Under the pieces are notes generated by a model. That model saw only the letters and a program-made list of their open reading frames with translations, did not search any database and had not been told where the DNA came from. Of a stretch of 15,229 nucleotides of DNA, positions 1 through 15,229 are shown piece after piece (within the stretch, counting starts at the first letter, position 1; each line of letters opens with the position of its first letter). The stretch lies in NCBI RefSeq assembly GCF_020969955.1, contig NZ_JAHDSX010000051.1:1-15229 (forward strand). Reading direction: 5' to 3'. The stretch is from Allobaculum fili (GTDB lineage Bacteria > Bacillota_I > Bacilli_A > Erysipelotrichales > Erysipelotrichaceae). A program made the position numbers and the translations under genes.

Positions 1-64
1 GTCAATAGATTTTTAGAAAAAAGTGAAAAAACTCGAATCATTCGAGATTTGACTTGAAGAGTAG

Positions 65-101
65 AAAAAAGACCACATCACTGCTTAACGCTGATGTGGT
101 C
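65..101 (-). terminator. Rho-independent terminator downstream of the nitroreductase gene
   Basis: Perfect 10-bp inverted repeat GACCACATCA (71-80) / TGATGTGGTC (92-101) with an 11-nt loop. On the minus strand it is followed by T6 (A-run 65-70). A weaker second hairpin CTCGAA/TTCGAG (32-46) plus T-run lies just beyond. Confidence 0.6.
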
Positions 102-215
102 TGAGAAATCTTAACTTAATGACATTGCTCCTCTTACCAGAAAAAAACTCCGCAGAATTCAGTGACCTGCGAAGCAAAAATGATAGTCGTCTTTTTAGAA
201 AGCGAAGAACGCCGG

Positions 216-725
216 CTATTCGATCCAGCGAATACGCTCTGGATCAAAATGTTCAGTTACATGAACGTCCTGCTTTGGATAGCCAAACGGAACCAGCGCA
301 ATCGATTCTAAAGTTTCATCCAGCTGAAGAACATCCGCCATATACTTCATTCGGTCTTTCAAAGGGGCTACGCCAAGGCAGACGCCGCCCAGACCGAGCG
401 CTGTGATTTCCAGAAGCAGGTTTTCGATGCAGATGCCCATGTCGATTTCATTGTAGGGCGGACAGCTGTTCTCCTTGCGACACAGAACGGCAAGCAAAAC
501 CGGCGCGCCGGCCGCAAAATGCGAATATGGAGAAATGCCGGCCAGTCGGGTTTTCATTTCCGGATTGGTGATAACTGCAAATTCCCAGGGCTGGCTGTTC
601 ATGGCGCTAGGCGCCTGCATGCCGGCTTTGAGAACATCGATAATCTGTTCGCGCGATACGGGCTGATCGGTCCACGCCCGCACGGAAGCGCGTTTAAAAA
701 TTGGATTTTCACTGCAGGATTCCAT
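216..725 (-). CDS. Nitroreductase-family flavoprotein (169 aa from the internal start)
   Basis: The ORF contains the nitroreductase signature region PIFKRASVRAWTDQPVSREQIIDVLKAGMQAPSAMNSQPWEF. The ATG at 725 is preceded by GGGAGGAACCTT (SD GGAGG), whereas the 60 codons upstream in the 229-aa ORF are Cys/Arg-rich and implausible. Stop codon is TAG. Confidence 0.85.
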   Translation of the reverse strand: MESCSENPIFKRASVRAWTDQPVSREQIIDVLKAGMQAPSAMNSQPWEFAVITNPEMKTRLAGISPYSHFAAGAPVLLAVLCRKENSCPPYNEIDMGICIENLLLEITALGLGGVCLGVAPLKDRMKYMADVLQLDETLESIALVPFGYPKQDVHVTEHFDPERIRWIE

Positions 726-924
726 AAGGTTCCTCCCCGGCTCCTGAGGAAATGTCGCAATACGGTAAGAACTGCAGAGCGGCAAAAACGTGCAGGAGCT
801 TCTTTTTTCTTCAGTATAGTTATCGCGCAGGCAAAGCGCAGAGGGAATGAACGAAAAGCACAGACGAGAACGGCGCCTGGAAAGGCGCACGCAGATTGTT
901 TTCAAGTGCTCTCTATCCTGCGCA

Positions 925-964
925 AAGAAAAACGATGGCCTGTTCTGTCATCGACAGGCCATCG
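925..964 (-). terminator. Rho-independent terminator of the phosphatase/GTPase-NYN operon
   Basis: 11-bp perfect stem CGATGGCCTGT (933-943) / ACAGGCCATCG (954-964) with a 10-nt loop. It lies immediately after the TAA stop (968-970) and is followed on the minus strand by TTTTTCTTT. Confidence 0.7.
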
Positions 965-967
965 TTT

Positions 968-3490
968 TTAATGCTTTTTAAGTGCTGCAAAGGCGCTTTC
1001 GTTGACGGAGAGAACTGCGCGTTCGAGTTCTCTGGCGGAAATTCTTGTGGCGCCATGGGAGAAGACGGAGTTCTGAATGAGGCCGTCGCTCGTGGCGGCA
1101 ATGCAGTGAAATTTGCCTTTGAGATCCGCGGCCTTCTTTTCAATCCAGGCATCTGCGCTGATGCCGGATGGCGTGTACACAATCGAAGCGGATCCGTTTT
1201 TGGAAGAGGAGCCGGGATTGCCTTTGCGGCGGTTGCCGTCAAAGACCACGATCAGCGAATACCCTTTGTACCCCTGGTAGTTGATGAGCAGACTGATCAG
1301 CTCTTCGCGCGCATCCGATAAAGAATGCGAGGAAATTTCGCGCAGAGACGGCCATGAGTAAATCATGTTATACCCGTCGACGATCAGAACCGTTGGCAGA
1401 TGCGAGAAGGTCGTAACCTGCGTTGGTTCGAGCGACAGGTCGGTTCGTTTCTTTTTGGATGGACCGGCTTTTTTCGCGTTCTGGTTGCTGCCGCCGGCGT
1501 TCTGGAAGACGCGGTTCAGCTCCTGCGCGGAAACTTTGGACGAGTTGATCGAAATCGAAGAAACCGTCTGGGTATTGTCCACGGGCGGAATGTGCAGGTG
1601 GTCTTCCACCTCATCCCATTCGATCGTAAGGCCGACACCGTTCGAGCAGAATACCGATCCCGAAGGATAGAAGCGGTCGAGGCTTTCGTCGTAGCCGATC
1701 TGTTCGATGACTTCCTCGGCGTTTTCGCAGCGGTCGTAGCCGTCGTTTTCCACGGAAATATCGGCACGCCCTTTGGAAAGGGAGGCAAGTGTCGTATTCA
1801 GATTCATCAGCGTGCTGACCGGACCGCGTCCGGTAATGCGCATTTTTCCCGATTCCATTTCTTCTACCTGAACTTTGGCGCGTCGGGTTTCGAGTTCGTA
1901 CAAAATGCGGGAAAGATCTTCGGCAGGCGTTGTGATTTCAAAACGGAAAAACGGTTCCAGCAAGACGTTCTGCGCCTTTTTCAGGCCCTGGCGCATCGCC
2001 CGGGATGCTGCCTGACGGAAGTCCCCGCCCTGCGTATGTTTCTGGTGAGCGCGGCCGGCGATCAGCGTGACATGAATATCCGTCAGCGCGGATCCGGTCA
2101 GAATGCCTTTCTGGACGTGATCCGAAAGGGAAGAGAGGATGAGCCGCTGCCAGTTCAGAGACAAAACGTCGCGGGGAACTTTGGACGAATACGTCATGCC
2201 CGATCCGCGTTTGCCCGGTTCGAGCATCAGGTGCACTTCGGCATAGTGGCGAAGCGGTTCAAAATGGCCGTAGCCAAAGACGGTATCGTCAATCGTTTCC
2301 TGGTAGACGATTTTCCCGTTTCCAAATTCGCATAAAATACCGGTGCGTTCGTAAATCCGGTTTTTGAGAATTTCTTTCTGAATTTCGCCCATCAGACGGA
2401 TGGAAATCGTCTGGGACGCTTCATCGAATTCGATCTGAAGCATCGGATCTTCCATCATCATCTGCCGCAGCGGCGCCATCATCGTGACCGGATCTACACC
2501 GGCCGGCAAAATCAGTGCGTAGCACAGGGAAGCGCTCAGCTGCGCTTCTTTGCGCGACGTCTCAAAACCGAGTCCGTCGCCAGGTTTCAGATTCTGAAGC
2601 CCTTTGACCAGAACGATATCGCCCGCCGAAGCTTCCTTGACGGGACGAATGGACTGTCCGTTCGCCATGAAGAGCTGATCGGCTTTCTGATCGCCGCGCT
2701 CATCGTGAATTACATCTTTGGCGTGGAGCGTTCCGCCGGTCAGCTTAAGATGGGCAATCGGCGCCTTGGCGGAATCGAGCGTGATTTTAAAGACGCGCGC
2801 CCCAAATTCTTCTGGATATTCCTGTTCTGGCGTATAGGCAAGCAGAGCATCGAGCAGTTCGCTGATGTTTTCGTTTTTCAGTGCGGAGCCAAACAGCACC
2901 GGAAATGCCTTGCGCTCCTTGACGGCCTGCGCCATGGACGCGGGGGAGAGGGTTTCGGTCTGTACAAATTCATCGAGCAGCTTTTCGTCGAGCGCCGCAA
3001 ACTGTTCGATCCAGTCGTCCACGCTCAGATCTACGATTCGGGTATCCAGATTTTTCTCAATGTCCGAAAGCAGTTCTTCTTTGGAATAGGACGTCGCGTC
3101 CATCTTGTTGACAAAGAGGATGGACGATACCTGATACGCATCCAGGCATTTCCAGATTGTGCGGGTATGCGACTGTACGCCATCTAATGCACTGATCAGA
3201 ACGATGGCCGTATCGAGAATGGAAAGCGAACGTTCCATTTCAGCGGAAAAGTCGGCATGGCCCGGCGTATCGATGACATTGATCGTTGTATCCTTCCAGG
3301 TGAAGGAAGCCTGCTTGGAATAAATGGTAATTTTTCGTTTTCGTTCCTGCTCGTCAAAGTCGAGAAAGGCGTCCTGATGATCGACGCGTCCAGCCTTGCG
3401 GATCTGGCCGGAGGTCAGAAGCATGCTTTCAATACAGGTGGTCTTTCCGGCATCGACATGCGCAAGAATCCCGGTTGTGATGGTTCTCAT
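968..3490 (-). CDS. TetM/TetO/EF-G-like translational GTPase fused to a C-terminal YacP/Rae1-type NYN endoribonuclease domain
   Basis: A single uninterrupted ORF. N-terminal G motifs are AHVDAGKTT (G1), DTPGH (G3) and NKMD (G4). The sequence is collinear with ribosomal-protection/EF-G proteins (ISALDGVQSHTR..FVNKMD; EF-G IV/V-like LEPFFRFEITTP). The C-terminal ~140 aa (LIVDGYNMIYSWPSL, LIVVFDG, SADAWIE, ATSDG, SARELERAV) matches the B. subtilis Rae1/YacP pattern. SD AAAGGAAG is best spaced for the second ATG (3490); the first ATG at 3496 is an alternative start. Confidence 0.85.
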   Translation of the reverse strand: MRTITTGILAHVDAGKTTCIESMLLTSGQIRKAGRVDHQDAFLDFDEQERKRKITIYSKQASFTWKDTTINVIDTPGHADFSAEMERSLSILDTAIVLISALDGVQSHTRTIWKCLDAYQVSSILFVNKMDATSYSKEELLSDIEKNLDTRIVDLSVDDWIEQFAALDEKLLDEFVQTETLSPASMAQAVKERKAFPVLFGSALKNENISELLDALLAYTPEQEYPEEFGARVFKITLDSAKAPIAHLKLTGGTLHAKDVIHDERGDQKADQLFMANGQSIRPVKEASAGDIVLVKGLQNLKPGDGLGFETSRKEAQLSASLCYALILPAGVDPVTMMAPLRQMMMEDPMLQIEFDEASQTISIRLMGEIQKEILKNRIYERTGILCEFGNGKIVYQETIDDTVFGYGHFEPLRHYAEVHLMLEPGKRGSGMTYSSKVPRDVLSLNWQRLILSSLSDHVQKGILTGSALTDIHVTLIAGRAHQKHTQGGDFRQAASRAMRQGLKKAQNVLLEPFFRFEITTPAEDLSRILYELETRRAKVQVEEMESGKMRITGRGPVSTLMNLNTTLASLSKGRADISVENDGYDRCENAEEVIEQIGYDESLDRFYPSGSVFCSNGVGLTIEWDEVEDHLHIPPVDNTQTVSSISINSSKVSAQELNRVFQNAGGSNQNAKKAGPSKKKRTDLSLEPTQVTTFSHLPTVLIVDGYNMIYSWPSLREISSHSLSDAREELISLLINYQGYKGYSLIVVFDGNRRKGNPGSSSKNGSASIVYTPSGISADAWIEKKAADLKGKFHCIAATSDGLIQNSVFSHGATRISARELERAVLSVNESAFAALKKH

Positions 3491-3508
3491 TTGCATCTTC
3501 CTTTCTCT

Positions 3509-4132
3509 CTATCTTTTTTCTTCATGCGCATCGTCATCGCGGACACATGAAGACGGAGTCAGCGGCTGCAGGCTGTCCCGGTGCAGCGTATCGGTATCGA
3601 ATACCTTCACCTCACAGTTTTGATAGAATGCGCCGGCATAGGCTTCATTATCCATGCCTTTGAAATAGTTTTCAATCACCCGGCAAATTCCGCCGTGCGT
3701 TACGAGAAGAACATTATGCGCCTTTGACGGATACTGTTTCTGAAGCTCGTCGAGAAAGGTGTATACCCGGGCGGCCACATCCAGAAACGATTCCCCGCCT
3801 TCAAACGGCTTGAAGTACTGATGCTTTTCTTTCTGGTATTCGGGATCATTGCGCAGAGCGCCTTCAAAAACGCCAAAGTTCTGTTCGATCAAAGCCGGGG
3901 CGATTTTCATCGCAAAAGGAAAGCTCGTGTTTTTTGAAATGGCCTCTCCGGTCTGCATGGCCCGTTTCATGGGCGAGCAGTACACAGCGTCAAAGGCAAT
4001 GTCTTTCAGTGCTTTACCTGCCTGATCGGCCTGCTTTAAACCCGTGTAATTGAGCGGTTCATCCGTTCGGCCCAGAACGCGGTTCTGATGGTTAATATTT
4101 GTTTCTCCGTGACGAATCGTATAAATTTTCAT
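3509..4132 (-). CDS. Histidine phosphatase superfamily protein (phosphoglycerate mutase / CobC-like branch)
   Basis: N-terminal RHGET catalytic motif (MKIYTIRHGETNIN) and a second catalytic His in LLVTHGG. SD AAAGGAA lies upstream of the ATG at 4132. The TAG stop is 12 nt (18 nt to the favoured ATG at 3490) from the downstream GTPase start, consistent with co-transcription. Confidence 0.85.
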   Translation of the reverse strand: MKIYTIRHGETNINHQNRVLGRTDEPLNYTGLKQADQAGKALKDIAFDAVYCSPMKRAMQTGEAISKNTSFPFAMKIAPALIEQNFGVFEGALRNDPEYQKEKHQYFKPFEGGESFLDVAARVYTFLDELQKQYPSKAHNVLLVTHGGICRVIENYFKGMDNEAYAGAFYQNCEVKVFDTDTLHRDSLQPLTPSSCVRDDDAHEEKR

Positions 4133-4513
4133 GATAAAAGTTCCTTTCTGTCATCGGCTTTCGTCGACGGCCGCAGAGGAATATGGAATTGACTGCAGGA
4201 AGGACAAACGCCGTACAAAAGCGGCTCTGGAAAACGCAGTCAGTTTATAAGGCTGTTTCAAAGACGTTGCTTCATCTGTTTTTAAGGAAAACCGGCAAAA
4301 TCAGAACGGTCCTTTTAAGCCGGCGAACATTTTGGGACAAAGCGCATGGTCAGCCACCTGACAATCCGTTCCTGCAGGGACTGGTTCTGTTCTTTACTAT
4401 AACCGGTTGAAGAAAGGCGTGCCGTTTCAAAAACGAAGAAGCCGGCTTGTGCCAGACGGGCCCAATCGAACAGGCCCGCAAATTTTGAGCAAGTACATGA
4501 AGGAGGGAAAAAG

Positions 4514-6043
4514 ATGAGAGATTCACACAACGATTTTTTTGGCGGTACCCAATCGTCAGAAGATACAAAGAAAGAAACCGTGTATGAAGAGGATCTGCGT
4601 GAAGAAGATCTTTATCTTTTTGAAGATCCGAAAACGGCGACATCTAACGACATAAATTCAGCTGCTCAGCCGTCCAAACCGGTCGTTTTGCGTCCTCTGC
4701 CGCAGCAGGCAAAACCGGATCTGTCCAGTACTGCTTCCAGAGAACAGCCAAAACGAAGCGTACCCCAGACGGATTTCCGCTCGCGCAGGGATATGCCGGA
4801 TATTCCGGCTGATGCGCAAAGCAGCCCATATGGGAAGACATCCAGATCTTCGGACTTTGCAGAAGAAATGGACGAGTATTCAAATCCCTCTTCAGGTTAT
4901 GATGCAGACCACTGGGATCCCGCCTGTGACGAAGATCGTTACGACATCCATACCGGTCAGGATTCTGACTTTGACGATGCGCCGTACGAAGACGATCAGC
5001 CTCTCCTGCAAAGAGAATACACAGAAGACGACAGCCGTTCGCGAAGAAGCCGCCGCTCTTCCAGACGTTCCCGCAAAGACCGGGATCGGGACGATCGCCG
5101 CTCATCCAGAGCGCAGGATCGAAAGGAAGCCCGTGCAGCCCGCCGCCGCGAAGACGACGAAGATAAGGAGGACGCATACTTCAATCATCGCCAAAACAGA
5201 GAATATGTACAGGACAACGATCCAGAACCGTCTTCACGCAGATCTCGCAGTCGAACAGCGCCATCCGATGAATATGATGACGAGTACGAGACGCATGCCC
5301 ATTATGAGGACGACCCTCGAGACTCCAGAGACCGCTCCGGCCGTCGAGGGGGAGGCATTCCATGGATTTTGCAGGCGGTACTCTATTCGGCTTTAGGTCT
5401 TGGCCTCGGCCTTTTTGCCCGCTATATTGATCTTCATCCTTCCGACAGCACGATCCAGTCGCTGGCCGTTTCACTTTCGGATCTTCCGTTCTGGATGATG
5501 TGTGCCGTCGGGATCAGCGTCTATTCCAAAAACGGCCTGGCGGCGTTCGCGAACGTTCTGCTGTTTTTCTCCTTCATGGATATTGCCTACTACTGGTATT
5601 CCTATCAGTACGATGGAACGCTTCTGATGAAGCTCTTCGTCTTCTGGGGTCTGCTGGGGGCGGCGAGTTCGCTGCTGGCGCCATTTGTGCATTACGCCAA
5701 GTCGAAGGGCGTATTCGGCTTTGTGCTTTCTGTACTGATTCTTGCGGTGCAGGCGATTCTGACCGGCTGGTCGGTGATCGGCTGGAACTTTCTCTGGTTC
5801 GTCGGCTCGATGCTGTTTCTTTCCCGCAAATCCATATTCATGACGCTGCTCATGGGTCTGGCCGGCGGTCTGCTTGGCATTGGCGTCTGGATGTATCTGC
5901 ATCAGATCGGCGTGAGCAGTCTGCTTCGCCATTCCACAAGGACCGGTGAAGAATCGGCTTTTATGGTCTGGATTAAGCAGACGGATCTGAGTGTCTGGCT
6001 CGAACAGCTTCTGTACCGTCTGGGCATGGTTCCTGGTCAGTAA
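4514..6043 (+). CDS. Membrane protein with a long intrinsically disordered, highly charged N-terminal region (Arg/Ser/Asp/Glu-rich) and ~7 C-terminal TM helices; family unknown
   Basis: Strong SD GAAGGAGGG 6 nt upstream of the ATG. A terminator follows the TAA stop. The C-terminal 220 aa is a run of hydrophobic helices (IPWILQAVLYSALGLGLGLF, LAAFANVLLFFSF, VFGFVLSVLILAVQAIL, IFMTLLMGLAGGLLGIGVWMYL). The N-terminus contains DDSRSRRSRRSSRRSRKDRDRDDRRSSR. Confidence 0.75.
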   Translation: MRDSHNDFFGGTQSSEDTKKETVYEEDLREEDLYLFEDPKTATSNDINSAAQPSKPVVLRPLPQQAKPDLSSTASREQPKRSVPQTDFRSRRDMPDIPADAQSSPYGKTSRSSDFAEEMDEYSNPSSGYDADHWDPACDEDRYDIHTGQDSDFDDAPYEDDQPLLQREYTEDDSRSRRSRRSSRRSRKDRDRDDRRSSRAQDRKEARAARRREDDEDKEDAYFNHRQNREYVQDNDPEPSSRRSRSRTAPSDEYDDEYETHAHYEDDPRDSRDRSGRRGGGIPWILQAVLYSALGLGLGLFARYIDLHPSDSTIQSLAVSLSDLPFWMMCAVGISVYSKNGLAAFANVLLFFSFMDIAYYWYSYQYDGTLLMKLFVFWGLLGAASSLLAPFVHYAKSKGVFGFVLSVLILAVQAILTGWSVIGWNFLWFVGSMLFLSRKSIFMTLLMGLAGGLLGIGVWMYLHQIGVSSLLRHSTRTGEESAFMVWIKQTDLSVWLEQLLYRLGMVPGQ

Positions 6044-6118
6044 TCAAAAACAATCGGAAACTATCTCTTATTGGTTAACGTTTTCCCTTCGATTTTCTCC
6101 CTGTTCTTTCGTTTTTCT

Positions 6119-6157
6119 GCCCGCTAGTGTGCGCCAGGCACATACAGCGGGCTTTTT
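6119..6157 (+). terminator. Rho-independent terminator of the 509-aa gene
   Basis: Outer stem GCCCGCT (6119-6125) / AGCGGGC (6146-6152), inner stem TGTGC/GCACA, followed by T5 (6153-6157). Confidence 0.65.
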
Positions 6158-6163
6158 GGCGGC

Positions 6164-6197
6164 ACAAAAAAATCCAGCCGCAAAAGGCGACTGGATT
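6164..6197 (-). terminator. Minus-strand Rho-independent terminator with no annotated gene upstream of it
   Basis: Stem AATCCAG..CTGGATT (6171-6197, one internal mismatch). On the minus strand it is followed by a T-run (A-run 6166-6172). On the plus strand no T-tract follows, so it is oriented for minus-strand transcripts coming from the tRNA side. Confidence 0.5.
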
Positions 6198-6397
6198 GGA
6201 AAGTTTCTGAAACCGATTTTTTCGTTATAGCCGTTCGTAACGGACAAAGGGAACCGCCAGGATGAGGGGAGCAGCAGACCTCAGCGGCGAAATAGAGCGC
6301 ACGACTCGGCACGGTCTGAAAAAGACCTTCCCCGGAAGGAGGCTGCAAAGGAAAGCAGGATGCTAAGGAAAATGGAAAGTCTCGCTCAAAAAAGCGC

Positions 6398-6427
6398 AAA
6401 AAAATCGAACACTGCGAAGTGTTCGAT
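6398..6427 (-). terminator. Rho-independent terminator of tRNA-Lys
   Basis: Perfect 10-bp stem ATCGAACACT (6404-6413) / AGTGTTCGAT (6418-6427) with a GCGA loop. On the minus strand it is followed by T-rich TTTTTTTGCGCTTTTTT. It starts 12 nt after the tRNA 3' end. Confidence 0.7.
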
Positions 6428-6438
6428 CTGGTTTCAAG

Positions 6439-6514
6439 TGGTGGATCCTTAGGGATTCGAACCCTAGACCCACTGATTAAGAGTCAGTTGCTCTGCCAGC
6501 TGAGCTAAGGATCC
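6439..6514 (-). tRNA. tRNA-Lys (anticodon CUU), 76 nt with encoded CCA
   Basis: The reverse complement GGATCCTTAGCTCAGCTGGCAGAGCAACTGACTCTTAATCAGTGGGTCTAGGGTTCGAATCCCTAAGGATCCACCA folds by hand into a cloverleaf. It has a 7-bp acceptor stem, D stem GCTC/GAGC, anticodon stem ACTGA/TCAGT with loop CTCTTAA (CTT at 34-36), T arm TAGGG-TTCGAAT-CCCTA and discriminator A73. Confidence 0.95.
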
Positions 6515-6560
6515 ATGATTTGTTTTGTCATGAGAACTTGCGCCCTCGTGACTGCCTGAA

Positions 6561-6588
6561 CATAATAACACAGCTGGGCCGGAATGCA
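6561..6588 (-). promoter_or_regulatory. Putative sigma-70-type promoter for tRNA-Lys
   Basis: Minus strand reads TTGCAT (-35, 6583-6588), a 16-nt spacer, then TGT-TATTAT (extended -10, 6561-6566). An A/T-rich UP-like tract (TTTTTTTCATTTTTTTGTTTTT) lies upstream. The element sits ~45 nt before the mature tRNA 5' end. Confidence 0.5.
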
Positions 6589-6694
6589 ATTCCAAAAACA
6601 AAAAAATGAAAAAAAGTTGATTTTCAACGGGCGTGTAAAAATTAAGGCGCGTTCGATTCGAACACAGAACAGACACAAAAGAAAACCGATGCAT

Positions 6695-6722
6695 TTGCAA
6701 TTGAAGAAAGGCTGCCTAAAAT
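6695..6722 (+). promoter_or_regulatory. Putative sigma-70-type promoter for the FemAB-family gene
   Basis: TTGCAA (6695-6700), a 16-nt spacer, then TAAAAT (6717-6722). The -10 overlaps the ATG at 6721 of the long ORF version, which argues for the downstream start at 6811. Confidence 0.45.
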
Positions 6723-6810
6723 GTTAGTTCGTTCGCCGTCCCCTCAAATTGGAAGAGATATTGTGACAGGGTATAATGAAGGCGCGTTTATTAAAGATTG
6801 GAAGATATTC

Positions 6811-7923
6811 ATGCGAATTGAACAGATTACTATTGAACAATATGAAAAATTTATCGAAGACAGCCAGTTAGGCTTTGTCTTCCTGCAGATTCCCTCGTAC
6901 GCGAAACTGTATGACCGTTTCATTCTGGCGGGAATCAATGACGAAAACCGCATTACCCATGCCGTCATCGTTGAACCCAAACCCGCTATGAAGATGTGGA
7001 AGTTTGCGTATACTGCCGGCGGCTTTTTAAGCGATGACCGCGCTCATGACGCGGACTTCCTGGAAGAAGCTTCCGAGTATCTGAAAAAGGAAGGCTTCAT
7101 TCTATGGCGTATTGAATCGTCTGTGGAAGTAAAAGAATACGACCGCGAAGGCGCCGTTGTGGAAGGCGGCTTTGACAACACGAAAGAGCATCTCGCTCTC
7201 GCCGAAAAAAACGGATTTCACTGGCACGAATCGCCGTTAGGCACCGATACGAGCCATCAGATTACATGGCAGTCGGTCGTTGAGCTCAAAGACGGCATCA
7301 ACCAGCACCACAAAGGCTATCAGGGCAAGCTCACTCCGGAAATTCCAAACCGGGACATTGCGGATATCGACAAGCTGATGTCCGGCAGCTCGAGAAAGTA
7401 TACCCATAAGGCCGAACGCGAAGGCTTTACGCTGACCATCAAGAATCCGTCCGAAATGGAAGAGCAGGACTGGGCCGATATCGAAGGCATGCTTGACAAG
7501 TCCGGCGAATACAAGAACTTTGATACCGGATCCGGCGAAAAGCGCCGCGATCTGGCCAGCGTATCCGACGGTTACTGCAAGCTCGTCAAAGTCCACAATG
7601 CGGATGGACAGCTGGTTTACGGCGGCTACTGGTACGTAACCAACATGGAAATGTTATGTTACTTCGGCGGAATTGACCGCAGTGCCGTCCGCTATAACCT
7701 TTCCGGCTTCATCCATCATGAGATGTATAAGCACGCCCTTGAACTCGGTCTGGAACGCTACAACTACGGCGGAATCAGCGGCTACTTTGAAAAGGGTCAG
7801 GACGGCTACGGCAGCTTCTTTTTCAAACGCGAACTCGGTGCGACCGTTGTTCGTACGTTCGGCATTTTCGACAAACCGCTCAACGCGATGGGCAAAATCT
7901 TCGAACAGCGCCTGAACAAGTAA
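6811..7923 (+). CDS. FemAB-family (FemX/MurM-like) aminoacyl-tRNA-dependent peptidoglycan interpeptide-bridge transferase
   Basis: Collinear with Weissella FemX as I recall it. KFAYTAGGF..FILWRIESSV corresponds to KFAYASKGP..YVLRFDPEV, and YFGGIDRSAVRYNLSGFIHHEMYKHALELGLERYNYGGISG corresponds to YMYAGSMDG..YAVQSEMIQWALDTNTDLYDLGGIE. The start MRIEQITIEQYEKF at 6811 has GGAAG 6 nt upstream. The ATG at 6721 is an unlikely N-terminal extension. Confidence 0.85.
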   Translation: MRIEQITIEQYEKFIEDSQLGFVFLQIPSYAKLYDRFILAGINDENRITHAVIVEPKPAMKMWKFAYTAGGFLSDDRAHDADFLEEASEYLKKEGFILWRIESSVEVKEYDREGAVVEGGFDNTKEHLALAEKNGFHWHESPLGTDTSHQITWQSVVELKDGINQHHKGYQGKLTPEIPNRDIADIDKLMSGSSRKYTHKAEREGFTLTIKNPSEMEEQDWADIEGMLDKSGEYKNFDTGSGEKRRDLASVSDGYCKLVKVHNADGQLVYGGYWYVTNMEMLCYFGGIDRSAVRYNLSGFIHHEMYKHALELGLERYNYGGISGYFEKGQDGYGSFFFKRELGATVVRTFGIFDKPLNAMGKIFEQRLNK

Positions 7924-8082
7924 ATCCGAAAGAAATTCAGCCGGCAATACAGTTCAATCCGGAATACAGGAAGAAACGGGAGCAATCGACAAGCGCTCAC
8001 GTTCAGACGATTCGCTTTATAAAGCCAGTCGTTTCGATCCTGCAAATTCACAAATCCGATTCACAGAACAGACTTAGAAATC

Positions 8083-8129
8083 CAGCGGGATGGTCAGTCA
8101 CACAGGACAGGCCATCCTGCTGCTTTTTT
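8083..8129 (+). terminator. Rho-independent terminator downstream of the FemAB-family gene
   Basis: 11-bp stem CAGCGGGATGG (8083-8093) / CCATCCTGCTG (8112-8122, one G-U pair) with an 18-nt loop, followed by CTTTTTT. Confidence 0.6.
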
Positions 8130-8221
8130 ATACCCAGACGAAATAAATACGAATATCCGCTTTCGACATTCATCCCGCAACCGTGTTTCGCTCAATAAAC
8201 GTGCATCCTCCGGCACAGAAA

Positions 8222-8304
8222 TTTGTCGATACGAATTGGCAGAAGGGGCCGTGTCGAAGCGAATCGGCGAGACAAATGTGTCGAAGCAAATGGGGCGAAG
8301 GGAG
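8222..8304. repeat. Three imperfect tandem copies of a ~27-28-nt unit with core TGTCGA[AT][AG]C[AG]AAT
   Basis: Cores are at 8224-8236 (TGTCGATACGAAT), 8252-8264 (TGTCGAAGCGAAT) and 8279-8291 (TGTCGAAGCAAAT), spaced 28 and 27 nt apart. The flanks are partly similar (GGCAGAAGGGG vs GGGCGAAGGGAG). Confidence 0.5.
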
Positions 8305-8313
8305 CGAGCAAAG

Positions 8314-8351
8314 CGGAAAGCAGCATACGGATAGCAGAATACGGAAAGCAG
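8314..8351. repeat. Three tandem copies of a 14-nt unit CGGA[AT]AGCAG[AC]ATA
   Basis: CGGAAAGCAG (8314-8323), CGGATAGCAG (8328-8337) and CGGAAAGCAG (8342-8351) with an exact 14-nt period. The array abuts the terminator of the 708-aa gene. Confidence 0.5.
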
Positions 8352-8383
8352 AAAAAATCCCCTGTTCAAGTCGTGAACAGGGG
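8351..8383 (-). terminator. Rho-independent terminator of the 708-aa membrane protein gene
   Basis: Perfect 10-bp stem CCCCTGTTCA (8359-8368) / TGAACAGGGG (8374-8383) with a 5-nt loop. On the minus strand it is followed by ATTTTTT. Confidence 0.75.
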
Positions 8384-8450
8384 AAGAAAGAACGAAGCAA
8401 ATTTCTTGCGGGCTGTGGTTGATATGCAGCCAGGAAACGAGGTGTACGGA

Positions 8451-10577
8451 CTAGTCGAGGATCTGGTAAATCACGTCTTCGGTATTCTCGTCATCGTAAA
8501 CAATCTGGTAGGAAATGCCGCCGGCGTCGAGAACCTGCGCATCGCGCTCCGTACCTGCGATGTAGTCGATATCCCAGTTTTTGAGCATCGAAACGGGCAG
8601 ATTTACCTGTACTACGTCGCCCGAAGGGCTGGCAATTTCCAGATCGCCATCCGGAATCAGGGAAACGTAAATGTGCGCGTAACGGTTAATTTCGTCTTCA
8701 AACTTGTGCTCCGGATCGATGAGTTCCCATTTTTCGAAATCCGGGTAGAAGTTGACGCCGTTAACGACTTTGACGCCATTGGCCATCATCAGCGCCTGAC
8801 GCAGATCGTTTTCGGTCGTCAGCCACCAGGAGTCAGGATTTTCTTCACGAATCTGTACAGCGGCCTGTGCCATGGGGTATTCGGCAACGCTCGCCGTTCC
8901 CTGCATGATCGGGTTGACAAGCATGCCGCTGCCGGCTGTCCATGCCAGCATGCCGCAGAGGGTCAGCTGACGATAGCGGGTAAAGGCCAGCCAGAACAGG
9001 AATGCCAGACCGATTGAGAAGACATAGAACATGGCCCGCGATCCAAACAGCCGCAGGAAGTTTGGCAGGATCATGTAATGCGTAACCATAGCGGCAAGAA
9101 CGGCGTAAATGGCGCAGGCGACAAAGCCGGAGAGCGTTTTGTGCGGGAACTTGGTGTCCTGCACTTTGTAAATCGTCCAGACGGTAAAAATCGTGCCGGT
9201 ATAGCCAAATACGGTCTGCATGCGGTTGCAGGAAGAAAGCAGAGTCACTTTCGCCAGCCATACCGGGATTTCAAAGTGCAGATAAAACGCCTGGAACAAA
9301 AGGGAAAGGAAGAGAACCGTTCCGATCCAGCGGGAGCGGTCTTTCTTCTTTCTCAGCCAGTAGAAGAGATACGGATAGTACAGGCAGCAGGCAACGCCAA
9401 ACTGCGTAAAGCTCGAGATTTCACTGTTGTTAAGCAGATCCGGATCGGTATACGTCTGCAAAAGGCTGACCGGGTTGATAAACAGCATCCACGGTGCGCC
9501 GGTCGCCCCATGAACGACGCGATCGCCCGGATAAACGGTATCGTTGGCCATCATCAGCGCATCTTTTGCCGAAAGCAGTGTCGGCACCAGAACGATGCAA
9601 AGACCGCCGATGACCGCGATTACGTTCCAGATGTTGCTCTTTTTCCATTCCAGCTCATCTTTATCCCGATAAAGACAGGCGCACATTAGGAAGAAGGCGA
9701 GCAGTCCGCAAGGAACCTGCAAAGAAGGGAAGAGGGCCAGAACAAAGCCGTCTAACGATGCAATAGCCAGAAGCGTGAAGGCCCATTTTTTCCAGCCCTG
9801 CGCGCGGAAAAACCAGTAGCCGACCACAAAGAGCGTACTCGCCCAGAAAATCGCATCGTAGAAATGGGGCGAGAACCACCACTGCATGCCCGGCGCAAAC
9901 GTCAGGATAATGGCACCAAAAACGGAAAGGTATTTGTTTTTCGTCAGGATGTGGAACATCTCGATCGAAACCATCACCATCAGAATCGTTTTGGACAAAA
10001 AGTACCAGGAAATGCCGTAGGCGTTTCCAAACAGAATGTAGCCCCAGACAAACGGCTTGCCGATCAGGGAGAGCGACAGAACCGGGGAGTTGTAGCCGAC
10101 GATCATATCCTGACCGCCGATCGACATCTGATGGGAAATCTGGGCGTAGTCGTTGTAGTACTGGGAGAAGTAATACGGAAGCTGTACCGCATACTCATCG
10201 GCCCGCGGAATACGCGGACGGCCCATTAAAATGGACTGTTCCACTTCCGGATTTGCGGTAAACGAGTACATGTAGCAGGCCGCGTTGGACGTGTGGATCT
10301 GGAAACAGAGCAGAACCACAAACACAATCGCCGCAATCAGCCAGCGCCAGCGATACATTTTCTCGAACACCCCGTTCAGGAATTTGGAATAGAACAGGCG
10401 AAGCAGGTTGATGATCAGAACGAGCGTTCCGCACACCGCGATGATCGTCGTTTTTGTGAAGAAAACAGAAGTGAAAATGGTATAAGCCAGAATCAGCAGC
10501 GATTCCAGAAGAATCATGATGACTTTGGATCGCGGCAGTCTGGTTCGATGAAGACGGAGCGTAGAGGACGTACTCAT
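8451..10577 (-). CDS. Large polytopic membrane protein (>=12 TM helices plus a ~150-aa soluble C-terminal domain); possibly a GT-C-fold glycosyltransferase, family unassigned
   Basis: 708-codon ORF with SD AGGAAGG 9 nt upstream of the ATG and a strong terminator after the TAG stop. Hydrophobic helices run throughout. The first predicted external loop carries an acidic RADEY motif, reminiscent of the Asp/Glu loop-1 motif of GT-C enzymes. The C-terminal region (NPDSWWLTTEND...YQILD) is hydrophilic. Confidence 0.8.
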   Translation of the reverse strand: MSTSSTLRLHRTRLPRSKVIMILLESLLILAYTIFTSVFFTKTTIIAVCGTLVLIINLLRLFYSKFLNGVFEKMYRWRWLIAAIVFVVLLCFQIHTSNAACYMYSFTANPEVEQSILMGRPRIPRADEYAVQLPYYFSQYYNDYAQISHQMSIGGQDMIVGYNSPVLSLSLIGKPFVWGYILFGNAYGISWYFLSKTILMVMVSIEMFHILTKNKYLSVFGAIILTFAPGMQWWFSPHFYDAIFWASTLFVVGYWFFRAQGWKKWAFTLLAIASLDGFVLALFPSLQVPCGLLAFFLMCACLYRDKDELEWKKSNIWNVIAVIGGLCIVLVPTLLSAKDALMMANDTVYPGDRVVHGATGAPWMLFINPVSLLQTYTDPDLLNNSEISSFTQFGVACCLYYPYLFYWLRKKKDRSRWIGTVLFLSLLFQAFYLHFEIPVWLAKVTLLSSCNRMQTVFGYTGTIFTVWTIYKVQDTKFPHKTLSGFVACAIYAVLAAMVTHYMILPNFLRLFGSRAMFYVFSIGLAFLFWLAFTRYRQLTLCGMLAWTAGSGMLVNPIMQGTASVAEYPMAQAAVQIREENPDSWWLTTENDLRQALMMANGVKVVNGVNFYPDFEKWELIDPEHKFEDEINRYAHIYVSLIPDGDLEIASPSGDVVQVNLPVSMLKNWDIDYIAGTERDAQVLDAGGISYQIVYDDENTEDVIYQILD

Positions 10578-10669
10578 ATCGCCCGACCTTCCTTTCGTCG
10601 ATGGGTTTCGCTTTCAGAACGCCATCGCTCGAATTCAAAACAGCCTTGATCAAACAGGCAGACAGACAT
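10574..10669 (-). CDS. Candidate 31-codon upstream ORF translationally coupled (ATGA overlap) to the 708-aa membrane protein gene
   Basis: Minus strand reads AAAGGAG, 7 nt, then ATG TCT GTC TGC ... GCG ATA TGA (MSVCLFDQGCFEFERWRSESETHRRKEGRAI). Its TGA overlaps the downstream ATG as ATGA (10574-10577). It was not in the supplied track (too short). No homology evidence. Confidence 0.3.
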   Translation of the reverse strand: MSVCLFDQGCFEFERWRSESETHRRKEGRAI

Positions 10670-11075
10670 GGCAAAACTCCTTTCTTGCGTCTCCGGTTTT
10701 GAATGAATATTCGCAGAGAAAATCGATGTATAAATGAGGACTCTAAATAATCAGATCCTGTACACACAGAAACACCTCAGAAAAATCTGAGGCCAAATCA
10801 GAAGAAACGGGTCATTAAATCCCGCAGGACTGTAACGATTCTGTGTCCAATCGATCCTGTCCGTTCAGGACAGTCAGAAAGATATTAACATTTCTGGATT
10901 TGAAATCGTCCTTTCATCCGGAACTAAAAAAGACAGGAACAGGATCCGTACAGTTTCACATGTGGAAAATCGTGCTGCATTTTGGCCAGACGGAATTTCA
11001 GAAGGACTGAGGGAATGCAGGAAAACCGAAAACCATAAAGGACCAAACGGAACCGAAAGAATCCATACGGTATAC

Positions 11076-11089
11076 TGAAAGAGCTTACA
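11076..11089 (+). promoter_or_regulatory. cre-like (CcpA-type catabolite-responsive element) candidate upstream of the glycoside hydrolase gene
   Basis: TGAAAGAGCTTACA matches 13 of 14 positions of TGWAANCGNTNWCA, with a mismatch at the central C. It is immediately preceded by a -10-like TATACT (11071-11076) that has no convincing -35. Confidence 0.25.
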
Positions 11090-11307
11090 CAGGATGGGAA
11101 AATTCGACGCGGAAATTTTCCTAAGCAGTCCGACGGAACTGAGAAGACTCACTCAGCCAAAAAGACGGCATGAAACGGGCAATTGTGCCGTCTGTCAAAA
11201 TGAATGGACAGCGCTTTTTCATCGGAAACGGGCATACAGATCGAAAGAAAAAGAAAAACATGCGTCGAAAACCAGTTCAGGAATACAGGATAAAAACAGG
11301 ATAAAAT

Positions 11308-11490
11308 ATGAAACGGAAAGGAACAAAAAGCTTGCTGTGCGCCTTTCTGGCTTTAAGTTCACTGAGCAGCGCGCCGGTTTTTGCCGCGCAGTCATCCAGC
11401 GATTCGGCCGTCAGGATGATCCGATCGACCGACAGAGTTCAGAGAAATTACAGCGCCAGAAAAGCTGCGCCAAATACAGCCGTCGCTTAA
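11308..11490 (+). pseudogene. Signal-peptide-encoding 5' segment, in the same frame as the downstream glycoside hydrolase ORF but cut off by TAA at 11488-11490
   Basis: MKRKGTKSLLCAFLALSSLSSAPVFA|AQ is a canonical Sec signal: basic n-region, hydrophobic core and an A-x-A-like site. AGGA lies 6 nt upstream of the ATG. 11308 and 11500 are in the same reading frame, and only one stop codon separates the two ORFs. Confidence 0.5.
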
Positions 11491-11499
11491 ACCGCACAA

Positions 11500-14400
11500 A
11501 TGCCGGCGGCCGAGCATCTGAAAGATTACTGGGATTTTGAAGGGAATACCCCGCTTCAGTCCAAAACGAGTACCCATACCGCACTTACCGCAGTTACTGC
11601 GCAGACCGCTTCGGCAGAAAACAGCCTGTTTGGTCAGGTTTATCGTTTTCCGAGCGATCCTTCCCAGCATGCGTGGCTGCAGGCCTCGAACTATATCAAT
11701 ACCGGTCAGGGCCGCATGACCTTCGCCTTATGGTACAAATACGATCCAAGCCAGGACAGTGCGGACGGATCGTCTGTCGTACTGCTTCAGCATACGGGAA
11801 GCGGAAGAACGATTCTCTCGCTGCGCGCAGACGGCCATTATCACACGTATCTGAACGCCACGGATGTGTTCTCAGAAGGAACGGTTGCTAAAGGCGAGTG
11901 GCAGCACGTCGCGATCAGCTTTGATCAGGACGCGAAAAAAGTTCGCTTCTACATCAATGGAAAATTTGACAGTGAAAAGGATCTGGGCAATACGGTTCTG
12001 AATCAGATGTTTGATCTGCGGATCGGTCACCATAAAAACGATACAGGAACCAACCCGCACGGTCTGCGCGGCGATCTGGATGAACTTTGCGTGTACGACA
12101 CGAAGCTTTCGGATGCCGATGTACTCGAACTGTACGCGCAGAAAGGAAAAGGACTCCTTCTGACGGATCTTGAAGAGTGGGTCGCAAAAGGACAGACTCT
12201 CTGCGACGACAGCAAAGTGAGCCCCTCGGCAAAAACAGCCGTGCAAAACGCGCTGGATGCAGTGGAAGCGCTCGATCCCGAAACGGTATCCATAAATGAA
12301 CTCCAAAACGCCTGCGAAACCTTGAAAACGGCATGTCAAAATGCGGAACAGTCTCGTCCGGCCATTCTGCATGTGGAAGACGAGATTCTTCGAACGATCG
12401 ATCCGGATTCCATTTTCGGCATCAACCATCGCTATGCGTTTAACGCGTATGGAACCTTTGATGACGAAACGATGCAGGTTAAGGACGAGTTCAAAACGCT
12501 GTACAAGGATGCAGGTTTTGGATCGATTCGCTATCCCGGCGGATCCATTTCCAACCTGTTCAACTGGAAAACGACGCTGGGTCCAAAAGAACAGCGCAAA
12601 AAACAGGTTCATGCCTTTTATAACAATGGAAGACAGACCGGCATCGATCCCAACTTCGGACTCGAAGAAATTGCCAGCTTCGCCGATGAAGTCGATTCCG
12701 ATATCGTTTATGTGTACTCGCTGGCAAGAGGCAGTGCGCAGGACGCATCCGATCTGATTGAATTTCTGAATGCGAAAGTCGGAACCAATCCAAACGGCGG
12801 CATCGACTGGGCGAAGGTGCGCAGCGATTACGGCCATCCGGAACCGTACAACGTACAGTTCTTTGAAATCGGAAACGAAATCCAGCAGTGCTGCGGCATT
12901 AACAACGACGGCAAGACGACCCAGGGCTACTGGATCGATTACCGTTCCGACGGATCCGATGCGGTTCACGCCTTCACCCTCGGTGCGCCAACCGCTTATA
13001 ACCGGATTTATGCGGCCAACCCGGACAACTGGGACGAAAACGCCTCCCGCTCCGACGGATCGAAAAACATGGTTCGTCAGCTGCGTCACGTCAATACGAA
13101 CACCATGCTTTACGAAGACGGAAAACTCCGCATGGATCCGGATTTCCAGGCACTGGAAAACGGTGCCCACGTCTACGTCGGTCAGAACGCGGCTTCCGCG
13201 ACGGAATGGACGATTGTCGATTCCCTTGAAAATGCCGGACCAAACGATCAGAAGTGCACGCTGAACTATTCCACAGGCGAAATCACATTTGGAGACGGAG
13301 TCCATGGCGCCGTTCCTGCCAGCGGTCATGGCATATACGCGTCCTACAGCGTGAATCATGACGGCTTTAACGATGTATCCGAAGCGATGCGCCAGACCCA
13401 GTCGCGCATCAATGAACTGGAATCCAAAGAGCATGACGTGAAAATTTATACGGCCTGGGAAAACGTCAACTTCGTCAATCTCGAAAATCAGCTTGGCAAA
13501 GCGGACCTTTACGACGGCATGACGATTCATCCTTACTCAGGAACCGTCAACGAAAGTTCAGATGAAGCTTTCCTGCTTGATGTGATGGCCAAAGCGCAAA
13601 ACTGCAGAAACCGCGTCGTGAACTACTTAAACCAGATGCCGGAAGACAAAGTCCCGGCCATTTCGGAATTTGGCATTTACTACAACACCAGCGGACGTAC
13701 GCGTTCCCAGCTGCACGCTCTGTATGTCGCCCGCTGCATTATGGATTATGCCGAACTGGGCTCGCCCTACATTCAGAAGCACTGCCTCTCGGATTACTAC
13801 ACATCCGGAGCCGATGCCTTAGGTCCAACGCAGCAGGCCGTCATTCAGGTTGTGCCGCTGGCCGGCTCAGATACGGCCACAGGCAAAGGCAATTTCGGTT
13901 ACTTTGCGACGCCAAGTGCGCACGTCTTCCAGATTTTCAACGCCGGATTTGGAACCGAACTGCTCAATTCCTCCCTGTCACAGGACTACACGCTGTCCAA
14001 CAACGTCAATTCCATTTCTGTTCTGGCCAGCCGCGATGAAGAGCACAACTATTCCATCGCCATCGAAAACGCGGATCCGACAAATGCGCGCGAGATCCAG
14101 ATCGAACTGCCGGAAACGGTCGAAAACGCAGTGATCAAGGCGCAGCGTCTGGAATCCAATGGTCTGGCGGATGAAAACAGCCTCACCAGTCCCGCAAACG
14201 TTACGGTCCGTACAGATGAAATTCAGACGGATGAAGACGGACGCGTTTTTGTAACCGTACAGCCGCATTCGTTCCTGATTCTTCGCGTGTATGAACCGGC
14301 CGATAAGACGGAACTCAATTCGCTCATTGAGCTGGCGAAAAATGTGAAGACCGATGGCAGTGCGAAGTTTACCGATCTGAAAAACCGCCTGGATCAGGCG

Positions 14401-14718: not shown

Positions 14719-14947
14719 ACTTTGCCGCCCTTTCTCTGGGTATTCCTCCTTTCAGACGATCGATACAGGCTGGATTTGTGATTTCGTCGATTTCGCCTGT
14801 ACGGCTGAAAAATCCGGAAGCCAGTTTCCAGAAATTCTCTTTCAGGAAAAGAAGGGGAGGCGTACCGAAGCGACCAAATCGCGGCGGTCTTTAAGGGAGG
14901 TCTGTAACGGAGGATTGCCTGAAGCAGCCTTAATTCCACACGCAAAA

Positions 14948-15002
14948 AGCAGAGATTCTTACCCTCTCTATATCAGGGAGGATGGAATCTCTGCTTTTTT
15001 AT
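14948..15002 (+). terminator. Rho-independent terminator of the glycoside hydrolase transcription unit
   Basis: 11-bp perfect stem AGCAGAGATTC (14948-14958) / GAATCTCTGCT (14985-14995) with a 26-nt loop, followed by TTTTTTATTT. Confidence 0.7.
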
Positions 15003-15142
15003 TTGGAAAATAATTTGCGAGAAGGCTGCGGGCGGTCAGAAGCCGCACAGAAACTGGACTGGACAGGAAACAAAATGGGAAACACAGAGGATGGGCGCGT
15101 TTTTCCGTAAGCGTCAAATAAAAGACGGGTATTTTCTCGACC

Positions 15143-15182
15143 GCCTCCTTGGGATAATTCCTTTATTCAAGGAGGCTTTTTC
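15143..15182 (+). promoter_or_regulatory. SD-sequestering hairpin / terminator-like attenuator immediately upstream of the last CDS
   Basis: Perfect 9-bp stem GCCTCCTTG (15143-15151) / CAAGGAGGC (15168-15176). The 3' arm is the AAGGAGG Shine-Dalgarno of the ATG at 15183. The stem is followed by TTTTTC. Confidence 0.45.
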
Positions 15183-15229
15183 ATGGAATCAATCATCCCT
15201 GCAATCGATCTCGGTATCGATTTCTCCAA
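15183..15229 (+). CDS. 5' end of an unidentified CDS running off the window (MESIIPAIDLGIDFS...)
   Basis: ATG at 15183 with AAGGAGG 7 nt upstream. The frame stays open to the window edge, but only 15 codons are visible, so no product call is possible. Confidence 0.45.
   Translation, partial: MESIIPAIDLGIDFS

Follow-up and report, generated by a model that had tools for sequence, protein, structure and literature searches.

In Allobaculum fili, a member of the Erysipelotrichaceae, a single gene encodes a translational GTPase of the EF2 family joined in one polypeptide to a Rae1/YacP-type NYN endoribonuclease. The gene lies on the minus strand of the 15,229-nucleotide stretch that we analysed at its full length (hereafter the window; NCBI RefSeq assembly GCF_020969955.1, contig NZ_JAHDSX010000051.1, positions 1 to 15,229 of the forward strand). 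Judged by their motifs, both enzymes appear to be catalytically competent, and the reading that we favour, to which we would give about an even chance of being right, is that the fusion would act as a GTP-gated Rae1 nuclease, anchored at the factor-binding site of the ribosome and cutting mRNA on stalled or collided ribosomes.

Such fusions have been on record since 2015, with a second account in 2017, and the architecture is not new. Tet-like/NYN_YacP fusions in Clostridia were described, with their function left open, by Atkinson (2015; PMC4342817), whose Additional file 8 includes copies from R. albus, E. eligens, E. rectale, B. proteoclasticus, C. cellulolyticum, C. lentocellum, C. phytofermentans, C. 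thermocellum and D. hafniense. The motifs GHFEPLRHYAEVH, KHTEGGDFRQA and LLVDGYN are visible in those sequences, and the A. rectalis copy is 44% identical to the window protein. Matelska and colleagues later remarked on TetM-NYN_YacP fusions 'in some Clostridia' and considered their role unclear (Matelska et al., 2017; PMC5499597). The original prediction, made by a model from the sequence alone, had been aware of no functional characterization of this architecture; that part stands, our full-text literature searches having found no functional study of the fusion and the recent Rae1 papers making no mention of it, whereas the architecture itself had already been noted. What is new here is the assignment of the GTPase to a subgroup apart from the Tet proteins, the constraint on its domain IV, the existence of unfused members, the spread of the family, the lack of a genomic partner and the variable tail of the nuclease.

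The fusion is encoded by one unbroken open reading frame (ORF) of 842 codons with an ATG start, as predicted and as borne out by both the ORF listing and its translation. An assembly or gene-calling artefact joining two genes can be rejected, since our own ORF calling recovered the fusion as a single ORF of 822–980 aa in 81 of 81 loci and the family comprises more than 150 clusters at 50% identity. A word-indexed search returned more than 120 full-length homologues with matching Pfam architecture (47–100% identity), and an exhaustive HMMER search of 1.84 billion cluster representatives gave a best 150 matches, at 36–64% identity, that are nearly all full-length fusions of approximately 820–980 aa. 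Fusions continue to predominate down to the 150th match, and the only other entries are some fragments, an unfused protein of 642 aa and a fusion of a different kind. When one genome per bacterial species was scanned by pattern, at least 585 of 600 candidate stretches encoded relatives, and the best 80 of those stretches all carried the full-length fusion at 38–47% identity.

The source labels of these homologues span the Erysipelotrichales (Holdemania, Solobacterium), the Lachnospiraceae (Blautia, Dorea, Agathobacter, Lachnospira, Butyrivibrio, Herbinix) and the Oscillospiraceae (Flavonifractor, Intestinimonas, Lawsonibacter, Dysosmobacter), with further copies in Ruminococcus, Anaerovorax, Fusibacter and others; Eubacteriales are represented as well. 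Erysipelotrichales-type copies are 47–53% identical to the window protein, as against 38–45% for those of Clostridia, a gradient which, taken from pairwise identities only, fits what vertical descent would give. The fusion is ancient and widespread, far beyond the 'ten species' or 'some Clostridia' of earlier accounts. Its automatic names vary, and include 'TetM/TetW/TetO/TetS family tetracycline resistance ribosomal protection protein', 'translation factor GTPase family protein', 'NYN domain-containing protein' and 'small GTP-binding protein'.

The expectation that Pfam would find GTP_EFTU, EFG-type domains and NYN_YacP all in one protein proved correct (Table 1), and Foldseek comparison with the PDB gave EF-G structures as the top matches (E 1e-52). 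Our AlphaFold model, built from 35 homologues, has a mean predicted local distance difference test score (pLDDT) of 78.9 and a predicted template modelling score (pTM) of 0.45, a value at which it gives no reliable inter-domain arrangement. In the G domain we found the P-loop AHVDAGKTT, the G2 Thr57, DTPGH with His80, NKMD and GSALK; among the 35 homologues G17, K18, T19, T57, D76–H80, N130, K131, D133 and G203 are invariant, and S204 and A205 are at least 90% conserved. The motifs named in the original prediction (AHVDAGKTT, DTPGH, NKMD, VDGYN, SADAWIE and ATSDG) are therefore all present and intact, their key residues being invariant or at least 90% conserved in the 35 homologues and in 81 genome copies. 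The G' insert is strongly reduced, approximately 54 EF-G residues having no counterpart between query residues 154 and 161.

Domain V is followed by a folded extension with the motif GYDxExDxxNPxGSVFCxxGxGxxVxWxEVxxxxHI, in which Y602, D607, S614, F616, C617, G620 and G622 are invariant in the homologue alignment. The domain layout first proposed for the protein holds, except that this extension (residues 593–636) had not been set apart. The linker itself is basic and as flexible as its low-complexity sequence had suggested: pLDDT falls below 50 at residues 642–657 and 667–698, with confidently modelled domains on either side. Its length ranges from 61 to 124 residues across 81 genomes (median 80), the window copy having the shortest. 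The NYN domain beyond it is modelled confidently (residues 702–841, pLDDT ~75–92).

Table 1. Features of the fusion gene and of its probable transcription unit, with positions in the window and residues numbered along the 842-codon ORF.
Feature	Position	Strand	Remarks
Whole fusion ORF	968..3496	-	842 codons + stop at 968-970
G domain, residues 1-225	2822..3496	-	Pfam GTP_EFTU 4-223, E 1e-53
Domain II, residues 231-310	2567..2806	-	EF-G_D2 231-309, E 1.8e-09; beta strands, pLDDT 83-92
Domain III, residues 335-392	2321..2494	-	EFG_III 338-392, E 1.6e-06, 28.5 bits vs cut-off 27
Domain IV, residues 395-509	1970..2314	-	EFG_IV, E 7.5e-18
Domain V, residues 511-592	1721..1966	-	EFG_C, E 2.1e-16
C-terminal GTPase extension, residues 593-636	1589..1720	-	Helix, beta-hairpin, helix; pLDDT ~80-86
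Ser/Asn/Lys-rich disordered linker, residues 637-700	1397..1588	-	Short helix 657-667; Lys-rich stretch before nuclease
YacP/Rae1-type NYN endoribonuclease domain, residues 701-842	971..1396	-	NYN_YacP 704-835
Ribosome-binding site GAAAGGAAG	3497..3505	-	Between upstream stop TAG 3511-3509 and fusion start
Histidine-phosphatase (His_Phos_1) gene	3509..4132	-	Upstream of fusion
GC-rich 17-bp hairpin + minus-strand T-run (likely intrinsic terminator)	928..969	.	Begins within fusion stop codon

Nowhere is the fusion protein more conserved than in domain IV. Scored as the mean per-column frequency of the commonest residue in 81 genome copies, its conservation reaches 0.80, compared with 0.66 for the G domain, 0.62–0.65 for domains II, III and V, 0.67 for both the extension and the NYN domain, and 0.30 for the linker, the lowest of all. 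The domain's tip bears two near-invariant, family-specific loops: GHFEPLRHYAEVH (residues 410–422) and KHTxGGDFRQA (486–496). Because domain IV scores 0.80 and the G domain 0.66 across genomes whose copies are only 38–47% identical overall, this pattern argues that contact with the decoding centre would be central to function, and that the GTPase is probably no passive anchor.

What kind of GTPase is this? The G1–G5 motifs, the catalytic His, domains II–V and the EF-G fold match place it in the EF2 family. By NCBI thresholds it is neither a Tet protein nor an EF-G, since its scores lie below the curated cut-offs of both: the best NCBIfam match, tet_protect, reaches 394.9 bits against a cut-off of 775, and the TetM/W/O/S model 275.6 against 1100, while the EF-G models TIGR00484 and PRK12740.1-5 score 295 against 659.4 and 352.6 against 583, respectively. 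Domains IV–V taken alone score higher with EF-G (69.8 bits) than with TetM (51.1 bits). In addition, unfused relatives of the GTPase exist. Those of Ligilactobacillus salivarius, which lie on megaplasmids and are assigned to the TetM family by the Prokaryotic Genome Annotation Pipeline (PGAP), are ~640 aa long (one of 639 aa), lack a NYN domain and are 40% identical to the fusion over residues 3–635; the L. salivarius relative carries the matching tip GHFEPLRHY(A/S)EVH and HTxGGDFRQA as well as the post-domain-V extension. Another unfused protein, P0268 (642 aa), is 43% identical over residues 5–636 and has the EF-G-type domains without NYN. Given the L. salivarius and P0268 proteins, the GTPase is best classed, on sequence grounds, as a separable module and a distinct EF2-family subgroup that also exists alone.

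The unfused 639-aa L. salivarius protein is encoded next to a second gene for ribosomal protein S14 (rpsN) and genes for a DsbA oxidoreductase, an ArsR/SmtB metalloregulator and a 'putative metal homeostasis protein', and the whole (L001 3735–7920, megaplasmid NZ_CP114513.1) looks like a metal (zinc) limitation cluster. A further relative, P0242 (873 aa), shares the GTPase and its extension, but has a class IV aminotransferase (Aminotran_4, 671–864) in place of NYN, which may reflect either another kind of fusion or read-through in the calling of genes.

Comparison with two known groups of EF2-family proteins sharpens this picture. Tet(M) and Tet(O) have in common with the fusion a five-domain EF-G-like layout, a short G' and an extension after domain V, and are collinear with it in one stretch over residues 3–588. 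Yet Tet(M) is only 29% identical to the fusion, as opposed to 40% for the unfused non-Tet relatives, and the fusion's extension is both longer than that of Tet(M) and unrelated to it in sequence. The domain IV tip of the fusion, with GHFEPLRHYAEVH and KHTxGGDFRQA, corresponds in position to IHIEVPPNPFWASIG and YYSPVSTPADFRML of Tet(M). The domain IV loop of Tet(M) reads GLYYSPVSTPADF, and its Tyr-Ser-Pro-Val motif is the part that we take to reach the tetracycline site and displace the drug; throughout the family, the window protein included, the sequence there is G(R/K)AHxKHTxGGDF. The tetracycline-acting Tet loop is thus, from the alignment, absent from the fusion. EF-G, in turn, shares the fold and the GTPase motifs at ~25% identity, and the fusion keeps a His in the domain IV loop aligned to the GSYHD of EF-G. 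In contrast to EF-G, it lacks most of G', its first domain IV loop is four residues shorter and has an invariant sequence of its own, and it adds a nuclease.

The match of the nuclease to NYN_YacP (PF05991) covers residues 704–835 with 132.6 bits against a cut-off of 24.6 (E 1.8e-38), it aligns to residues 3–132 of B. subtilis Rae1/YacP (PDB 5MQ8/5MQ9) with E 2e-21, and it is ~40% identical to the B. subtilis gene annotated rae1. The NYN_YacP family is defined by a first-strand Asp that precedes GYN and by at least four conserved active-site Asp residues (Matelska et al., 2017; PMC5499597). In the fusion the motifs VDGYN, SADAWIE and ATSDG are present, as are Asp707 (in VDGYN), Asp753, Asp782 and Asp804; none of these four residues varies among the 35 homologues, and each is at least 90% conserved in the 81 genome copies, as expected of the catalytic NYN domain that had been predicted.

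A further trait of the family is a pair of C-terminal helices bearing conserved basic residues. The fusion's NYN domain matches profile positions 1–134 of 166 and keeps one long helix (residues 821–841). Alignment to B. subtilis Rae1 and C. difficile YacP shows that the ~30-residue basic C-terminal tail of stand-alone Rae1 is missing from the window protein and those closest to it. In around 50 of the 81 genome copies a tail of 21–46 residues remains, and some copies match the profile as far as position 161–165 of 166; the tail is therefore, to judge by these alignments, variably retained and missing in the window's clade only, not in all fusions. With stand-alone Rae1/YacP the fusion thus shares the NYN_YacP domain, the D-GYN motif, the four active-site Asp residues and, presumably, a ribosome-dependent function. 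They differ in setting: B. subtilis Rae1 is a stand-alone protein of 170 aa encoded in the rlmB-rae1-sigH operon, whereas the fusion's NYN is a C-terminal module behind 700 residues of GTPase, at an unrelated locus.

Recent work on Rae1 bears directly on how such a fusion might operate. The original prediction assumed that Rae1 cleaves at the A site, a premise that is now outdated. Deves and colleagues (2025; PMC12407103) placed the cut 12 nt upstream of a stalled A-site or stop codon, and Rae1 is translation-dependent and makes substrates for tmRNA on collided ribosomes (Tetreault et al., 2026; PMC13622287). With the cut site so revised, it is no longer an obvious geometry that domain IV would guide the nuclease into the same A site. 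Recognition of such ribosomes by Rae1 is described as an open question, and there is no ribosome-bound structure because binding is transient (PMC13622287). Rae1 binds ribosomes only transiently and unaided (PMC13622287), whereas in the fusion the GTPase would supply the binding. The enzyme has also been tied to antibiotic responses in B. subtilis, through bmrCD and erythromycin (PMC12407103; PMC13622287).

We envisage the following sequence of events. The GTP form of the fusion would first dock at the factor-binding site of the ribosome. Domain IV would then probe the decoding region and select a particular ribosome state: that of a ribosome which has stalled with its A site accessible, or that of the trailing ribosome in a collision, locked in the rotated pre-translocation state. 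The nuclease, on its tether of 60–120 residues, would cut the mRNA near that ribosome, after which GTP hydrolysis would free the factor and the truncated mRNA would feed tmRNA rescue and decay, as proposed for stand-alone Rae1. This scheme borrows from the general behaviour of EF2-family factors, whose GTP form binds the factor site with domain IV directed toward the decoding region and which are released upon GTP hydrolysis. The picture of tethered modules is suggested by the variable, flexible linker that lies between two confidently folded modules.

As to geometry, we would place the GTPase on the factor site of the trailing ribosome, from where the nuclease might reach the mRNA at the entry channel of that same ribosome, a stretch lying immediately upstream of the leading, stalled ribosome. 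In a collision the trailing ribosome is held in the rotated pre-translocation state, the state that EF-G recognizes, as seen in disome structures. We prefer this placing because Rae1 is reported to cut just 5' of the stalled ribosome and because the trailing ribosome is in the EF-G-recognized state; it is speculative.

Several points weigh against the mechanism as a whole. The substrate, be it mRNA, rRNA or tRNA, is suggested by homology to Rae1 alone, and so long a linker could reach many sites, with modelling unable to fix the geometry (pTM 0.45). The fusion may replace stand-alone Rae1 or may add to it. Nor were smpB, ssrA, rqcH or mutS2 linked to the fusion among the 132 immediately flanking genes searched with Pfam. 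Finally, given the lost basic tail of the window's clade, members of the family may not all work identically.

The proposed logic, in which a stalled or collided ribosome is recognized, the mRNA is cut and rescue follows, is shared by SmrB of E. coli, Cue2/NONU-1 of eukaryotes and Hbs1-Dom34 (PMC13622287). The likeness would be functional only. SmrB and Cue2/NONU-1 use an SMR nuclease fold that is unrelated to the fusion's NYN, and none of them is known to be covalently joined to a translational GTPase; Hbs1 is a member of the EF1 family that brings a tRNA mimic, whereas the fusion consists of an EF2-family GTPase with a nuclease.

All-against-all clustering of 781 ORFs from 81 loci revealed no conserved operon partner; the commonest neighbour clusters were a generic ABC ATPase (12 of 81 loci) and a MATE-like transporter (11 of 81). 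The 132 immediately flanking genes match 182 Pfam families, the commonest of which, MatE, occurs in five. The suggested survey of neighbourhood conservation therefore turned up no conserved neighbour. PADLOC gave no match for its defence-system models, GC content is even along the window (0.48–0.55), and no mobile-element, transposon, plasmid or island context was found in the loci examined, the neighbours being varied and chromosomal. Because the fusion is ancient and widespread, always a single ORF and without conserved neighbour or defence match, its profile is that of a housekeeping gene working alone.

The co-expression with helix-turn-helix (HTH) proteins mentioned by Matelska (2017) is not general, HTH_18/AraC occurring in two of the 132 flanking genes. 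A plasmid origin finds no support: the full-length 'plasmid' matches are large records with housekeeping genes (secA, methionyl aminopeptidase), and are probably pieces of chromosome. Nor does a phage origin, to which two human-faeces records labelled 'UNVERIFIED: Bacteriophage sp.' that carry the full-length fusion (L005 = MT835563.1; MT835514.1) might have pointed. Nine ORFs scanned on L005 showed no phage hallmark, its Pfam-matching neighbours encode an NAD(P)H-hydrate dehydratase and peptidoglycan-binding proteins, and it looks like a bacterial contig.

A MATE efflux gene directly adjoins the fusion in approximately six loci (L014, L016, L031, L041, L050, L075). This may be chance, MATE genes being common in Clostridia; it is of note as B. 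subtilis Rae1 controls the bmrCD drug-efflux mRNA.

Three other explanations of the fusion deserve weighing. One is a nuclease directed at the ribosome's own RNAs, which would cut 16S or 23S rRNA or a bound tRNA for maturation, for quality control, or for inactivation and turnover under stress; we think this unlikely. In TetM, domain IV and the post-domain-V extension adjoin 16S h44, as is well established, and this speaks for such a role. So does the first linkage of NYN_YacP to rRNA/tRNA processing, which was made by neighbourhood through the mrnC-rlmB-yacP operon (PMC5499597), an arrangement that we also saw directly, and an rRNA/tRNA-nuclease role was indeed proposed by Atkinson (2015; PMC4342817). 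However, Rae1, the sole characterized homologue, is an mRNA endonuclease (PMC12407103; PMC13622287), the fusion is linked to rRNA-processing genes in none of the 81 loci, and in our model the nuclease would hang on a long floppy tether rather than be set rigidly against rRNA. It is more doubtful still that the protein is a ribosomal protection protein against tetracycline-type or other A-site antibiotics with an accessory nuclease, as its best NCBIfam match (tet_protect, 394.9 bits), the one-stretch collinearity with Tet(M)/Tet(O) over residues 3–588, the TetM/TetW/TetO/TetS family names that PGAP gives to some database copies and the links of B. subtilis Rae1 to bmrCD and erythromycin (PMC12407103; PMC13622287) might suggest. 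That best match is half of the curated cut-off (775), the protein is closer to unfused non-Tet relatives (40% identity) than to Tet(M) (29%), domains IV–V favour EF-G over TetM, and the YYSPVSTPADF loop of Tet(M) has become AHQKHTQGGDF. Moreover, the gene sits in varied chromosomal contexts with no transposons or plasmids, and its pairwise identities (47–53% against 38–45%) grade as vertical descent would have them. The plain TetM-type protection role that the original prediction entertained is accordingly improbable, on account of both the profile score and the differing domain IV tip.

Least credible, and very improbable in our view, is a toxin or anti-phage abortive-infection effector that, when triggered, would cut RNA on the ribosome and thereby halt translation. 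Toxins commonly act as ribosome-dependent mRNA nucleases, and in one locus, from A. rectalis, a BrnT/CopG toxin-antitoxin pair adjoins the fusion. Tetreault and colleagues speculate, too, that Rae1 could act on phage transcripts (PMC13622287). Against this stand the lack of any PADLOC match, the absence of a conserved partner, antitoxin or immunity gene (132 flanking genes spread over 182 Pfam families, with MatE in five), the ordinary and varied neighbours free of mobile-element or island context, the uniform GC content of the window, and the fact that the two 'phage' records are unverified, with the neighbours checked on one of them not phage-like. The stress or anti-phage effector that had been offered as an alternative finds no support in the same evidence. 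Delivery of a Rae1-type nuclease to the ribosome by the GTPase, the general idea from which the original prediction set out, remains the best reading.

Within the window, the fusion appears to be the second gene of a short transcription unit. The stop codon of the upstream histidine-phosphatase gene lies 12 nt from the fusion ORF, the two genes are probably co-transcribed, and the hairpin downstream of the fusion is likely, from its sequence, an intrinsic terminator closing the unit, so that the whole looks like a two-gene operon with its terminator. The true start of the fusion is probably the third codon (ATG 3490–3488), which would give a protein of 840 aa: the ribosome-binding site has its AGGA 8 nt 5' of that ATG but only 2 nt 5' of the first one, and the identical database protein P0001 (100% identity) is 840 aa long. 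His_Phos_1 is also directly upstream in a 75%-identical relative, there with a 4-nt overlap (L088 3061–3657; L089 2294–2890), which suggests translational coupling, in the closest clade only; in none of the 80 other loci does it adjoin the fusion, and one weak homologue lies ~3 kb downstream (L060).

Downstream of the fusion the window has a nitroreductase gene. In the same place the 75%-identical relative has a convergent gene, directly downstream of the fusion, for a small RelA_SpoT-domain protein of the small alarmone synthetase type (247 aa; L088 6271–7014, minus strand; L089 5504–6247, minus strand). Elsewhere in the window, a search for RNA elements found a single tRNA gene (6442–6514, minus strand; Rfam RF00005, 70.9 bits), between a 509-aa ORF and a FemAB-family gene. 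The 509-aa ORF (4514–6043, plus strand) has no Pfam match and overlaps four consecutive minus-strand ORFs (97, 177, 97 and 153 aa; 4350–5932) that are likewise without Pfam match. Further along are a DUF7657/DUF7654 protein of 708 aa (8451–10577, minus strand) and a 1072-aa protein with Laminin_G_3 and alpha-L-arabinofuranosidase-type domains (11500–14718, plus strand). Taken with the closest named homologues of the fusion protein, which come from Erysipelotrichaceae genera (47–53% identity), these proteins suggest a gut member of the Bacillota that degrades carbohydrates.

Set beside the characterized systems (Rae1, Tet, EF-G, SmrB), the fusion would be a ribosome-associated nuclease with a built-in GTPase. 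We would go one step further only tentatively, with rather less than even confidence: the fusion may be a natural 'Rosetta stone', revealing that Rae1-type nucleases act from the ribosomal GTPase-factor site, with GTP licensing one mRNA cut, on a ribosome that is either the rotated, untranslocatable trailing member of a collision or stalled with an open A site. If this were true, the fusion would be a single-polypeptide bacterial counterpart of the sensor plus nuclease of no-go decay, and the unfused GTPases that share its domain IV tip would be stall or collision sensors, which may partner stand-alone Rae1.

The covalent tie to a GTPase also has a practical side. The fusion could be locked on the ribosome by a non-hydrolysable GTP analogue or by mutating His80, making Rae1 recognition testable by cryo-electron microscopy, and together with the Rae1 work of 2025–2026 it offers a practical handle on an open question of Rae1 biology. 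Two cautions apply to existing surveys. Automatic naming as Tet proteins is unjustified (394.9 against 775 bits for the window protein), and resistome surveys may over-count as a result. For the 2026 census of Rae1 in 18,663 genomes, hmmsearch was run at E < 1e-10 and Rae1 matches were not filtered by length (PMC13622287), so that the census cannot separate stand-alone Rae1 from the fusion, and fusions would count as Rae1.

The fusion is found in dominant Clostridia of the human gut (Agathobacter rectalis, Blautia, Dorea, Ruminococcus, Flavonifractor, Intestinimonas) and also in the tractable industrial species C. thermocellum, C. cellulolyticum and L. phytofermentans, and in those organisms it may be the main form of Rae1-type rescue nuclease.

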